A model generated the notes under the pieces. The model had not been told where the DNA came from. It was given only the letters and a program-made list of their open reading frames with translations, and ran no database searches. The translations under genes were made by a program, and so were the position numbers. Below, in pieces: positions 542 to 26,566 of a stretch of 36,661 nucleotides of DNA; position 1 is the first letter of the stretch; each line of letters begins with the position of its first letter. Origin of the DNA: Escherichia phage HK75; the sequence record HM173637; one strand, written 5' to 3'.

Positions 542-2056
542 ATGACGCGAGGTGAGCGTGTAATAGCGTTCATTGAGCGCTTTTGCATCGTGCCAGAAGG
601 CAAGCTTATCGGCCAACCTATGCGGTTGGACCCCTTTCAGAAAGATTTCATCCTGGCGGTTTACGACAATCCAGCCGGAACGGATATGGCGATCCTCAGC
701 ATCGCCCGAAAAAATGGTAAGACTGGCCTGATTGCCGGAATTCTGCTGGCTCACCTGGTGGGGCCTGAAGCGGTGCAGAACACGCAGATTGTCAGCGGTG
801 CACTCAGCCGGGAACAGGCGGCCATCGTTTTTAACCTCGCGGTGAAGATGGTTAACCTGAACCCCAAGCTGCAGGAGATTGTGCACATTACGCCCAGCGG
901 CAAAAAGCTGATCGGCCTGCCGTGTAACGTCGAATACAAGGCTTTATCCGCAGAAGGTAAGACGACGCACGGCCTTTCCCCCATTCTGGCCATTCTCGAT
1001 GAAACAGGGCAGGTTAGGGGCCCGCAGGATGATTTTATCGATGCAATAACTACGGCGCAGGGGGCTCATGAAAACCCGCTGCTAATCGTTATCAGTACGC
1101 AGGCAGCAAACGATGCTGACCTGCTTAGCATCTGGATTGATGATGCGGTCAAATCGAAAGATCCGCACATCGTGTGCCACGTTTATGAAGCGCCAAAAGA
1201 CGCTGATATCAGTAAACGCGAGTCCTGGCTGGCTGCGAACCCGGCACTGGGAACATTCAGGTCAGAAAAAGACATGGCGCGCCAGGCTGAGAAAGCTGGC
1301 CGAATGCCAAGCTTCGAAAACACCTTCCGAAACCTCAACCTCAATCAGCGCGTGTCTACCGTATCGCCGTTTATCTCCCGCAGCGTGTGGGAGCTTTGCG
1401 GAGAGATGCCGATTAACACCCCGAGGAAGTGGTACGCGGGGCTGGATCTGTCAGCCAGGAACGACTTAACGGCGCTGGTTATCGCTGGTGAAGCAGATGA
1501 TGGTGTCTGGGATGTTTTCCCCTTCTTCTGGACACCGCAAAAGACTCTTGAAGAGCGAACCAAAACGGACCGAGCACCCTATGACGTTTGGGTGAGGGAG
1601 GGGCTGCTGCGCACCACGCCAGGAGCTTCGGTGGATTACTCATTCGTCGTTGCGGATATCGCTGAAATTATCGGTGATTTCGACCTTACCTCGATGGCTT
1701 TTGACCGCTGGCGCATTGACCAGTTCAGGAAGGATGCCGATGCCATTGGGCTGAGCCTCCCGCTGGTCGAGTTCGGCCAGGGCTTTAAGGATATGGGGCC
1801 AGCTGTAGACACGCTGGAGTCTCTGATGCTTAACGGGCGCGTGAGGCATGGCATGCACCCCGTATTAACGATGTGTGCTGTGAATGCGGTGGTGGTGAAA
1901 GATGCTGCTGGCAACCGCAAGCTCGATAAATCCAAAGCAACGGGCCGTATTGATGGCATGGTCGCAATGACAATGTCCGTTGGTGCTGCTAATGGGGAAG
2001 TTACCGAACAGGGTGGTGACTTCGACGACTTCATTTTCCGACCGCTGAGCATGTGA
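542..2056 (+). CDS. Terminase large subunit
   Basis: 504-aa ORF preceding the portal gene; size and position typical of an HK97-type TerL; stop overlaps the portal start. Confidence 0.85.
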   Translation: MTRGERVIAFIERFCIVPEGKLIGQPMRLDPFQKDFILAVYDNPAGTDMAILSIARKNGKTGLIAGILLAHLVGPEAVQNTQIVSGALSREQAAIVFNLAVKMVNLNPKLQEIVHITPSGKKLIGLPCNVEYKALSAEGKTTHGLSPILAILDETGQVRGPQDDFIDAITTAQGAHENPLLIVISTQAANDADLLSIWIDDAVKSKDPHIVCHVYEAPKDADISKRESWLAANPALGTFRSEKDMARQAEKAGRMPSFENTFRNLNLNQRVSTVSPFISRSVWELCGEMPINTPRKWYAGLDLSARNDLTALVIAGEADDGVWDVFPFFWTPQKTLEERTKTDRAPYDVWVREGLLRTTPGASVDYSFVVADIAEIIGDFDLTSMAFDRWRIDQFRKDADAIGLSLPLVEFGQGFKDMGPAVDTLESLMLNGRVRHGMHPVLTMCAVNAVVVKDAAGNRKLDKSKATGRIDGMVAMTMSVGAANGEVTEQGGDFDDFIFRPLSM

Positions 2057-23908: not shown

Positions 23909-24415
23909 TTAAATTGCGTGAATAGCGTGACGAGGGAAGGGGAGAGTTACTGGTGCAAAGGGTATATCGTCGTCAAAATCCATCGGAGGTTCGTTGTGTT
24001 GTGCTGGTGATGATTGCTGCTGTGGCTTCTGTGATTGCCTGCTGGCTGCTTGTTGTTTGCTGTCGCCAATGCCGCCAAGCATTTGCATCACGCCATTAAT
24101 TCCGACATGAACCTCGGTTGTGTAACGGTCTTGCCCTGACTGGTCTTTCCACTTTCTGGTTCTCAGCATTCCCTCGAAATAAATCTGATCACCTTTTTTC
24201 ACATACTGCCCAACGACCTCAGCCAGTTTCCCGGATACAGCAACACGATGCCATTCAGTCAATTCCTTTTGCTCGCCAGTATTTTTATCTCGCCATTGTT
24301 CTGACGTGGCTATTGTCAGGTTAGCGAACGCTGTTCCTGATGGTGAGTATCGAACTTCCGGGTCTTGTCCTACCCGACCAAGGATAATCACCTTATTTAC
24401 GCCTCTGCTTGCCAT
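23909..24415 (-). CDS. ssb: Single-stranded DNA-binding protein with C-terminal extension
   Basis: OB-fold N-terminus ([17 protein letters not shown]...), Gly/Gln-rich linker, MDFDDDIPF acidic tip followed by 15 extra residues. Confidence 0.85.
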
Positions 24416-25123
24416 TTATGCCGCCTGTTTTAGTTCGTTAACTCTGATGTTCATTACCTGAACGCATTTAGCCTGCGCCTCCTCGTTGCCAGCCATTAAT
24501 TGCCAGTCACGCTGATAACGCTCGATGAGTTTTTTCTTGTCAGTTTCTGTTGACGCATAATCGCTGAAGTCTTTCAGTATTTGTTCGCAGTCAACCGATG
24601 GAGATTTCTGGTTGGTATTTTCTGGTGATGGTTTGTTATCTGATGCTGGGATTGCCCATCCCGGCAGCGATGGAGGAAGCCAGTAAAATCCTGTTCCATC
24701 CTTCAGTTTTGCCCTGTGCCACCCCTGCTTTTTATCGAGAGATGTTTGTGCGAAACCTTCCTCAAGGTTATACAGATACCGACCGATTCCCCACTGAACG
24801 GCAGCGCGCTTCATTGCACCGGAACGACCACCTTTGACGGCTTCTACCTGCGTGTTTTCAGCAGCATCCCATTTGGTTACCCATTCGGAATCAATCTTTA
24901 TTGATATGCCGCATTCAACGCCGCCGTTGTTGGGAATATCGCGGTATTCATTGCGCCATCCTGCTTTGCCGCAAACATCGTCCAGGCGTTTCATGATTGC
25001 CCGGTTCGTGACATAAGCCAGCACCATAGCCCACACTTTGTCATCGCGTGTTTTACCGCTTTGCTGTATTCGCCATTCGATATCTTCAGGGCTGAATGGC
25101 TCATCGAATTTATTCAAATCCAT
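24416..25123 (-). CDS. Single-strand annealing recombinase (Rad52/Erf/Sak superfamily, tentative)
   Basis: 235 aa directly upstream of ssb; GAMKRAAVQWGIGRYLY segment resembling the Rad52-type annealing motif; GAGGTGA RBS. Confidence 0.5.
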   Translation of the reverse strand: MDLNKFDEPFSPEDIEWRIQQSGKTRDDKVWAMVLAYVTNRAIMKRLDDVCGKAGWRNEYRDIPNNGGVECGISIKIDSEWVTKWDAAENTQVEAVKGGRSGAMKRAAVQWGIGRYLYNLEEGFAQTSLDKKQGWHRAKLKDGTGFYWLPPSLPGWAIPASDNKPSPENTNQKSPSVDCEQILKDFSDYASTETDKKKLIERYQRDWQLMAGNEEAQAKCVQVMNIRVNELKQAA

Positions 25124-25131
25124 AATTCACC

Positions 25132-25302
25132 TCAGAATGGACACGGCCCAAGGAAATAACGCTGATTTAATACTTCAGTCTTTGCCGCATTTAAAAATAC
25201 GCGAACACCTTCACGATCTCCCTTCTGGCGATACATTAACGCCTGCTGCGTGTACATGCGTCTCTGTAACTTGCTCTCCTTCACTGTGGTTGCAAGTGAC
25301 AT
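25132..25302 (-). CDS. Hypothetical small basic protein (56 aa)
   Basis: ATG at 25302 with excellent AAGGAGA RBS; overlaps 25211-25381 ORF in another frame. Confidence 0.35.
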   Translation of the reverse strand: MSLATTVKESKLQRRMYTQQALMYRQKGDREGVRVFLNAAKTEVLNQRYFLGPCPF

Positions 25303-25381
25303 GAATATCTCCTTCGTTACCGATTAATTCTTTCATCTGACGAATGAATTCTTCGTCTGACCAGTTATCTGTAAAACTCAT
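25211..25381 (-). CDS. Hypothetical small acidic protein (56 aa), alternative to or overlapping the 25132-25302 ORF
   Basis: ATG overlaps the stop of the upstream Kil-position ORF (ATGA); weak RBS. Confidence 0.2.
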   Translation of the reverse strand: MSFTDNWSDEEFIRQMKELIGNEGDIHVTCNHSEGEQVTETHVHAAGVNVSPEGRS

Positions 25382-25530
25382 TTCCTGCGATACCACGGAA
25401 GGTTGATAGCTGATTTCATCGCTTTATTTGCTTCAAGCCACATTTTGGAATCACCAATAAATCTGGCTATTACTGCTTTGTTCTGTGCTGCACGAAGCAT
25501 CTGGTGATTGATGGCTATTTCATTGCGCAT
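25378..25530 (-). CDS. Small protein at the Kil position (50 aa)
   Basis: ATG at 25530 with GAGGT RBS, immediately after the cIII-like gene, shorter than the ORF-track cutoff. Confidence 0.3.
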   Translation of the reverse strand: MRNEIAINHQMLRAAQNKAVIARFIGDSKMWLEANKAMKSAINLPWYRRK

Positions 25531-25640
25531 AATAAGACCTCAACTCTTTTCCACCCGTCACGTAATTTACGGGTGATTCGTTCAAGTAAAGATTCGGAAG
25601 GGCAGCCAGCAACAGGCCACCCTGCAATGGCATATTGCAT
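25515..25640 (-). CDS. cIII: cIII-like FtsH inhibitor
   Basis: MQYAIAGWPVAGCPSESLLERITRKLRDGWKR matches the recalled lambda cIII N-terminal/central region; 41 aa from the internal ATG of the 25515-25742 ORF. Confidence 0.6.
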   Translation of the reverse strand: MQYAIAGWPVAGCPSESLLERITRKLRDGWKRVEVLLCAMK

Positions 25641-25703
25641 GGTGTGCTCCTTATTTATACATAACGAAAAACGCCTCTCGTGAAGCGTTATTGGTATGCA
25701 TAT

Positions 25704-25727
25704 AAAAAGGCCCTCACACTGGAGGGC
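25704..25727 (-). terminator. Intrinsic terminator (tL1-like) between the N-like gene and cIII
   Basis: On the minus strand GCCCTC-cagtgt-GAGGGC followed by CTTTTTATAT. Confidence 0.4.
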
Positions 25728-25869: not shown

Positions 25870-26208
25870 TTATGACCACTTTTTGTTTGGGTTTCGTTGG
25901 TGAGCGTGATTAACAACTCTGTGCATTACATCCTCATATTTTTCATCTTCAATTTTTTCGACATCGCGAGGAAATGGTGTTGCTAATGCTTTGTCAACTT
26001 TGTCCATTGGGTCTTCATTAATCTTATATTCCGGACCGTCATCTATAGCATTAAATCCAGGTGTTACACCGTTTTCTAATGCATATGCCATTCTCTTTTC
26101 CCATCTCGCTATTCTCCTCCTGTCTTGAGATGTAAGGCATCTATCAGATACTTTTCTGTTTTGTCCGCGGTCAGGATTAACATAAATAGTCTTTTTCACC
26201 ATAAGCAT
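25870..26208 (-). CDS. Putative N-like antitermination protein
   Basis: First gene leftward of the repressor; basic Arg-rich segment SQDRRRIARWEKR near the N-terminus; ORF-track start at 26214 is TTG, first ATG at 26208. Confidence 0.3.
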   Translation of the reverse strand: MLMVKKTIYVNPDRGQNRKVSDRCLTSQDRRRIARWEKRMAYALENGVTPGFNAIDDGPEYKINEDPMDKVDKALATPFPRDVEKIEDEKYEDVMHRVVNHAHQRNPNKKWS

Positions 26209-26566
26209 ACTCAATAAGCACCGTACGGTAGTTTACTGTACAATTTTATTTTTTGGACTGCATGTATTTTGTTTCCTAATGGGTTTGAATCTTTGCAATA
26301 AATACTTCTATTTTTTCGAACGACTTCTATATCAAAAAGCTGCTTTGCTTTTTGTGACTAAAAGCAAAAAAGCCTTCTCGCTAATGAGCAGCATTGCCGT
26401 TCATCCTGAACCCGCCGCGCTCCCGACGCATGGTTTAAAGACGCGCCGTTCGTCTATGGGCTTATGATGTACCTAAAGTTCATTAATGTAAAGTACCAGT
26501 AGTACATTTTATGGGTATAAAAAGCTCACTACATCATAAGTTAGTGAACTTTAAGGAAATTTATTT

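Follow-up and report, generated by a model that had tools for sequence, protein, structure and literature searches.

The cIII–kil segment of Escherichia phage HK75 leads into two overlapping small genes, one weakly Arf-like and one of the HkaM family, ahead of the recombination module

The stretch of DNA analysed here, referred to as the window, is the 36,661-nucleotide sequence of Escherichia phage HK75 (record HM173637), a lambdoid siphophage genome whose early-left region is HK97/mEp235-like, and the segment of interest occupies its positions 25,132 to 25,640. Identity of the region to mEp235, mEpX2, HK022, HK97, Sf6 and many Stx phages is 92–99%, and among 5426 complete E. coli genomes 854 (~16%) carry the segment at a coverage of at least 80%. 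It holds cIII, kil and two further small open reading frames that we call ORF A and ORF B, all on the minus strand, and together with the flanking features these are arranged as follows:

25670–25727, minus strand: two tandem terminator-like hairpins just upstream of cIII (consensus scan)
25595–25653, minus strand: cIII thermoregulator RNA, over the cIII RBS and first codons (Rfam RF01804, Lambda_thermo)
25515–25640, minus strand: cIII, 41 aa, starting MQYAIAG (Pfam Lambda_CIII, phrog_550)
25378–25530, minus strand: kil, 50 aa, host cell-division inhibitor family (Pfam Lambda_Kil, phrog_2055)
25211–25381, minus strand: ORF A, 56 aa, acidic, pI 4.6 (phrog_2123)
25303–25381, minus strand: the part of ORF A outside ORF B, A codons 1–26 (dN/dS, polymorphisms)
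25211–25302, minus strand: the A/B overlap, 92 nt, comprising B codons 1–31 and A codons 27–56 plus the A stop
25132–25302, minus strand: ORF B, 56 aa, basic, pI 10.1 (phrog_1723)
24416–25123, minus strand: single-strand annealing protein gene ('erf'; Pfam Rad52_Rad22, E = 5.2e-26)
23909–24415, minus strand: ssb, next in the recombination module (Pfam SSB, E = 1.6e-36)

Read in the direction of transcription, the segment would be the promoter-distal part of a lambdoid early-left (pL) operon, in which cIII with its RNA thermoregulator is followed by kil and then by two small genes that appear to head a homologous-recombination module. The tandem hairpins fall at a site where early-left terminators are annotated in HK97 and HK620. 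At the other end, 8 nt separate the B stop from the annealing-protein gene, whose product combines a Rad52/Rad22-type N-terminal domain with a C-terminal part that matches the C terminus of P22 Erf; domain swaps in Erf have already been described (PMC2629481). As a whole, the cIII–kil stretch and the head of the recombination module are ordinary for a lambda-like E. coli phage.

A preliminary description of this DNA, made from its letters and open reading frames, had recognized a clear cIII homologue of 41 aa beginning at an internal ATG, and the assignment was borne out by both Pfam (Lambda_CIII, PF02061; 74.7 bits against a cut-off of 25.7, E = 5.7e-21, residues 2–34) and phrog_550 (E = 5.1e-20). 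An AAGGAG lies 6 nt 5' of this ATG, and the cIII thermoregulator was found over the start at 88.5 bits (gathering score 50, E = 7.5e-22, full model 1–59), which fixes the internal ATG as the true one. The first 19 residues are those of HK620 cIII, from which the protein diverges after residue 32, and a comparison with the cIII proteins of Sf6 and ET826 showed the C-terminal half to be identical to that of Sf6. By these alignments the protein is a mosaic, with an HK620/lambda-type N terminus joined to an Sf6 C-terminal half. The 50-aa ORF that the same description had placed, as a coupled frame, at the position of kil shares 16 nt with the end of cIII and is a genuine Kil homologue (Pfam Lambda_Kil, PF06301, 72.6 bits against 27.6, E = 1.7e-20; phrog_2055, E = 1.2e-35), 100% identical to HK97 Kil and also named Kil by PGAP. 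Both cIII and Kil are thus placed by profile matches as unambiguous family members, for which FtsH inhibition and an FtsZ-dependent division block, respectively, are only predicted.

The two 56-aa frames that follow kil were found just as they had been described, one acidic and one basic, with an ATGA at the start of A, a strong RBS ahead of B, and an overlap of 92 nt in which B lies in the +1 frame relative to A. The pair was already known, being annotated as hypothetical proteins in Sf6 (gene 30, gp30, is A and gene 29, gp29, is B), mEp235 (mEp235_034 is A and mEp235_033 is B), HK022 (both annotated) and HK97 (gp42.1 and gp42), and in one public source an A-type protein already goes by the name 'accessory recombination function protein'. 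A literature search by name for gp42.1 and hkaM gave nothing directly relevant. In E. coli genomes B is annotated by PGAP (as WP_000050554.1) and A is absent from the annotation; gene callers that forbid long same-strand overlaps drop one member of the pair, and the one dropped by PGAP is A. Scans with window-type queries placed first returned identical copies only, and a scan with Arf first in the alignment returned only 9 near-identical Arf loci; a scan of genome contigs gave no more than 8 loci. No Pfam family was found for either A or B.

ORF B has an AAGGAG 6 nt 5' of its ATG and matches phrog_1723 (E = 4.5e-34), as does the B-type protein of Salmonella SPN9CC (E = 1.4e-31). When a profile of B proteins was compared with HkaM of phage HK620 (hhalign), the two aligned over 55 columns with a probability of 96.6% (E = 6e-10), and by this measure B is a homologue of HK620 HkaM and a member of the HkaM family. 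HkaM has no relationship to P22 Arf, and its function is not known (PMC5928155). The HK620 gene had originally been annotated 'arf' on account of its position. An AlphaFold2 model of B (pLDDT 86.8) consists of two helices (residues 7–27 and 30–51) forming a helical hairpin, and a Foldseek search of the PDB with this model gave nothing at E ≤ 0.001, only generic helical hairpins (best E = 2.2). The N-terminal 20 residues of the protein are conserved, with Ser10 and Arg14 invariant and Thr6 and Glu9 nearly so. At the other end of the protein, the last two residues, Pro-Phe, are invariant and are kept through synonymous codons (CCA/CCG/CCC and TTC/TTT) and three different stop codons.

The genomic setting of B is equally regular: across the 12 loci examined the gap between B and the next ORF is 1–10 nt, and that ORF encodes a recombinase in 11 of them (in S9-5 it is an HNH endonuclease). 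The recombinases that follow B are of Rad52 type, ERF type and, in two cases, AAA_24 (Sak4-like). B also occurs without A, in Erwinia phage 59, Salmonella phage S9-5 and HK620 as well as in Yersinia prophages, several metagenomic phages and two further lineages, and in HK97 and HK620 it co-occurs with Abc2. In oligonucleotide recombineering with the HK620 genes, sak4 and ssb together reached the level of the complete module with hkaM (PMC5928155); that assay thus does not require the B family. We picture B as a 56-residue basic helical hairpin that would be translated from a strong RBS of its own, 1–10 nt upstream of the phage's recombinase gene.

ORF A matches phrog_2123 (E = 4e-40), and its ATG overlaps the kil stop codon as ATGA. 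The same (A/G)TGA overlap between the A start and the stop of the upstream gene, which is either kil or cIII-like, was seen in seven of seven loci, among which the start changes from ATG to GTG; translation of A would probably be coupled to that of the upstream gene by termination and reinitiation. A relationship to Arf was suggested by a weak match of the window protein to phrog_2445 (E = 0.042), and relatives of A match the same family at E = 8e-4 to 0.06 over the N-terminal 25 positions only; four of five diverged A proteins match the Arf PHROG, across its first 25 positions. With BLASTP, A and P22 Arf align over 7 residues only, WSDEEFI (pairwise E = 0.013). On these grounds A may be called weakly Arf-like. 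The slot is that of P22 arf, whose product aids Erf recombination by an unknown mechanism (PMC12315714). A form of A without B exists as well, as a 35-aa protein in Kapi1 and HK140 that precedes an unrelated 103-aa ORF and RecT.

Four sequence-diverged lineages carry A together with B, namely the window/Sf6 type, Enterobacter phage MII_001, a Pseudocitrobacter prophage and Salmonella SPN9CC, and in all four the frames overlap by 80–95 nt in the same relative frame. Because the overlap recurs in four lineages and A and B belong to separate PHROG families, the arrangement is more than chance. To resolve which frame is under selection, polymorphisms were counted as synonymous/non-synonymous among 76 distinct copies of the region from A to B:

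A-only region: 28 SNPs; A frame 9/19, including one nonsense allele
A/B overlap: 17 SNPs; A frame 1/16, B frame 16/1
B-only region: 27 SNPs; B frame 19/8

Corrected for the numbers of sites, the A-only counts correspond to an omega of ~0.45, and they include, in prophage copies, the nonsense allele S8* and a recurrent W7C. Over longer distances, the first ~25–26 codons of A gave dN/dS values of 0.13–0.44 in the A frame, which was the lowest of the three frames in six of six deep pairs; the tails of A were not alignable between lineages. Purifying selection on B is strong and extends along the entire protein, for which the window-type allele holds 16 synonymous and 0 non-synonymous changes and the Sf6-type allele 19 and 9. 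In the overlap, the opposite counts of the two frames point to constraint for B only, so that purifying selection, looked for in both frames there, was seen in the B frame alone.

The preliminary description had left two possibilities, that only one of the frames is real or that the segment is genuinely dual-coding, and had proposed conservation and codon analysis of both frames as a check. That analysis found the N terminus of A and the whole of B constrained and the A frame within the overlap unconstrained. The dichotomy is therefore answered in part on each side: both families are conserved and each also exists independently of the other, yet selection on the shared stretch follows the B frame only. 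As far as comparative sequence data go, A and B are both real gene families, and the selected part of A is its non-overlapping N terminus; both frames are probably translated, yet the overlap is, informationally, B sequence. A would accordingly be read as an acidic peptide whose selected part is the N-terminal 26 residues, with the motif W/F-S-D-E-E-F-I as in P22 Arf, and whose C-terminal 30 residues would be an out-of-frame reading across the B start with no sequence constraint of their own.

The length over which the A frame stays open was considered separately. It is open for 27–32 B codons in all four lineages with A and B, and in nine lineages with B only the first A-frame stop falls at B codon 5, 5, 8, 8, 12, 20, 23, 43 and 43, respectively, that is, earlier in seven of the nine (Fisher exact p ~0.02). 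This difference is suggestive, though not decisive, of an A frame that is kept open on purpose. When B was resampled synonymously, the A frame remained open as far as observed in 17–39% of trials per lineage. Avoidance of stop codons was rejected as a proof of dual coding, given this chance openness and the two B-only lineages in which the frame is open as well.

The explanation that we favour, and hold to be somewhat better than an even bet, is that of a pL-operon segment with a real HkaM-family gene, B, and a gene A with an Arf-like N terminus, whose overlap is selected for B. Its main competitor, which we regard as unlikely, takes only B to be real and A to be a non-functional open frame, the −1 frame of B being stop-poor and the upstream 78 nt being conserved for some other reason. 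Much of what has been described could be accommodated in this way: A shows no constraint in the overlap (1 synonymous and 16 non-synonymous changes), chance alone leaves its frame open in 17–39% of the resamplings and for 43 codons in two B-only lineages, nonsense and W7C alleles circulate, and PGAP annotates B and not A. What a non-functional frame would leave unexplained is the N-terminal part, where dN/dS of 0.13–0.44 is confined to the A frame in six of six deep pairs and where the same module is found as a separate 35-aa ORF in a RecT context without B. The overlap of the A start with the upstream stop in seven of seven loci, retained with two different upstream genes and through the change from ATG to GTG, argues in the same direction, as does the difference between the four A+B lineages and the seven of nine B-only lineages with an earlier stop (p ~0.02).

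Two further readings assign the pair a different role. Since B lies in the +1 frame of A, the two could be halves of one product of 82–83 aa made by programmed +1 ribosomal frameshifting, as HK97 gp42.1 might be taken to imply; the HK97 record encodes an A–B fusion directly, by way of two extra bases, and in E. coli prophages at least eight other fusions, of 81–82 aa, have arisen independently and differ in their junctions, P0056 among them being present on 36 contigs. The junctions, however, are spread between A codons 18 and 50, a pattern of random 1-nt deletions and not of a shift site, and shifts into the third frame occur too (P0041, P0045 and P0051). No slippery or shift-prone motif is shared by the diverged lineages, B has a strong Shine–Dalgarno and ATG of its own and exists without A, the fusions would lose its conserved N-terminal 20 residues, and the two-base variant of HK97 is unique among phage records. 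The scatter of the junctions indicates sporadic frameshift mutations in prophages, and together with the third-frame shifts it led us to reject programmed frameshifting, which we consider extremely improbable. The other reading, to which we give very little credence, would make A or B the missing anti-RecBCD function, a functional analogue of lambda Gam. The visible module (annealing protein, SSB and 3'-5' exonuclease) has no recognizable Gam or Abc2, and the slot upstream of the annealing-protein gene is the position of gam in lambda; also in favour, Rec modules with an SSB, a nuclease and an annealing protein and no anti-RecBCD gene are a listed class (PMC12315714). Against it, neither A nor B has a Pfam or PHROG match to Gam, GamL, Abc2 or MuGam, B has no fold match at E ≤ 0.001 and is basic, unlike DNA-mimic inhibitors, and A is conserved only over a 26-residue peptide. 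Moreover, the presence of Abc2 alongside B in HK97 and HK620 means that B is no substitute for Abc2.

Returning to the favoured explanation of a real B overlapped by a gene with an Arf-like N terminus, we infer from context that A and B would be accessory factors in phage recombination, not essential to the module and acting through protein–protein contacts, not by catalysis. The invariant end of B offers one conceivable contact. SSB proteins carry C-terminal tips (...DDDIPF in E. coli) that serve as a dock for phage recombinases and host repair proteins. In HK620, Sak4 requires the NDYPPF tip of the phage SSB (PMC5928155), and the Pro-Phe end of B, though here no more than a resemblance, is for that reason worth following up. 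The joint reading, that the Pro-Phe of B, on a flexible tail after the hairpin, imitates the SSB tip and that the A/B overlap is maintained to set the ratio of A to B, strikes us as improbable. If it were true, B would be a small competitor or adaptor that gates the phage recombinase or host SSB clients onto SSB-coated DNA, and such mimicry would explain why B travels with three unrelated recombinase families; ribosomes translating A would run over the B start and so set the A:B ratio. Folding of the RNA at the B start showed only a modest gain over shuffled sequences (z = −2.15), with the B Shine–Dalgarno not convincingly sequestered, and the single neat 6-bp hairpin, in A codons 9–14, could not be matched by eye in the L007 sequence.

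The main gain of the analysis is one of clarification, in that the ORF after kil can be described as weakly Arf-like and the next one as an HkaM homologue; otherwise little changes. For annotation, it is of use to know that single-base deletions in prophages create spurious A–B 'fusion' proteins. Proteins of the HkaM family are very widespread and strongly conserved, are found with every kind of lambdoid recombinase and have no known role, and for these reasons the family is a reasonable target for work on accessory factors of phage recombination.

Set beside known systems, the first part of the segment corresponds to that of lambda, with members that match all three families (cIII, Kil and the cIII mRNA thermoregulator), although cIII in the window is 41 aa long and its last residues overlap kil. 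For the pair that follows, the comparison with lambda gam made in the preliminary description holds for position, after kil and before the annealing gene, and fails for everything else: A and B have no resemblance to Gam in sequence, size or charge, and no Gam family was matched in Pfam or PHROG. By position, A is better compared with P22 arf and B with HK620 hkaM. P22 Arf (47 aa) and A are both small and acidic, with (F/W)SDEEFI near the N terminus, and Arf occupies the slot between kil and an erf-type gene as A does; Arf abuts erf directly, without an overlapping B-type ORF, whereas B is interposed before the annealing gene in the window, and the similarity of A to Arf is limited to ~7–25 residues and statistically marginal. 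HK620 HkaM shares with B its position directly upstream of a recombinase gene, its Pro-Phe end and PHROG 1723, and differs in being 62 aa long, in preceding a Sak4 (AAA_24) recombinase and in following kil directly, with no overlapping A. The closest counterparts are those of Sf6, HK022, mEp235 and HK97, which have the A–B order and relative frame of the window between kil and the annealing gene; the A and B proteins of HK022, mEp235 and H-19B are 100% identical to those of the window, and for Sf6 the identity is 92% in A and 82% in B. Two additional bases in the HK97 record join the N terminus of A to the C terminus of B as gp42.1, and the window differs from this group in that the pair is joined with an HK620/lambda-type cIII N terminus.

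The segment in which the genes for ORF A (acidic, 56 aa) and ORF B (basic, 56 aa, HkaM family) overlap is present in Escherichia coli prophages as many frameshift alleles, independent of one another, which gene callers have reported as proteins of 70-82 aa. The database proteins (P-numbers) fall into the following types:

A-B fusions: P0010, P0013, P0016, P0038, P0047, P0048, P0056 (carried by 36 contigs), P0057
Shifts of the overlap into the third frame: P0041, P0045, P0051

In the Sf6-type allele, the version of the segment that resembles Sf6 genes 30/29, inspection by eye placed several of the frameshift junctions close to ...CACGCAGAAAGCTCTCTGG..., a stretch with a run of A and, in addition, a (CT)3 repeat. 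Among phages, the GenBank record of HK97 (AF069529, our locus L002, 1502..1753) has two additional single bases spaced 7 nt apart, at the site equivalent to window 25240..25260, and through these two bases the N-terminus of ORF A is joined to the C-terminus of ORF B in the HK97 protein gp42.1. Since the two-base variant is absent from all other phage records, it is either a mutation specific to this strain or a sequencing mistake that entered the original record.

ORF A is also found without B. The Kapi1 (L011) and HK140 (L010) loci, each at 901..1008, carry ORF A in a 35-aa form (MSFTDNWSDEEFIRQMNKMLNQHKEQEKDDDSDSE), followed by a 103-aa ORF and a RecT gene. The 103-aa ORF lies in the +1 frame relative to the short ORF A, as B does to A, and the two share 20-23 nt, the exact length varying with the choice between two neighbouring ATGs as the start.

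A weak hairpin of terminator type with a T run after it lies inside B at 25200..25215 (minus strand), across the position where ORF A stops. It may be due to chance, given that three terminator-like sites were observed in 1.1 kb and 1.4 were expected; in HK620, terminators are annotated within kil and hkaM. Two further features lie at or upstream of cIII:

25595..25653, minus strand: Lambda_thermo, the cIII thermoregulator RNA (Rfam match, 88.5 bits), spanning the ribosome-binding site and first codons of cIII
25870..26214, minus strand: ORF of 114 aa, 5' of the terminators and cIII, with no Pfam match

The position of the 114-aa ORF is occupied by different genes in relatives, for example mEp235_037 and, in E. 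coli ET826, a TolA-like protein.

Downstream of B, the window's 'erf' product (24416..25123, minus strand) combines an N-terminal Rad52_Rad22 domain with a P22-Erf-like C-terminal domain. Among the recombinases encoded 3' of B in other phages (L004, L099, L103, L105), the ERF-type and one AAA_24-type recombinase have, as judged by eye, a similar C-terminal segment of ~40 residues (...VY.IR..EL...A), whereas the Sak4 of HK620 lacks it. The window SSB (23909..24415, minus strand) carries 15 residues beyond the canonical ...MDFDDDIPF tip, an extension through which the terminal Phe, usually free, would become buried.

Every protein of the B/HkaM family ends in Pro-Phe (window 25132..25140, minus strand; L003-L007, L098-L105 and L270), while the codons specifying this end differ between loci, with CCA, CCG or CCC for Pro, TTC or TTT for Phe, and all three stop codons found thereafter. 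This Pro-Phe end is similar to the recombinase-binding C-terminal tips of SSB proteins (DDDIPF, NDYPPF).
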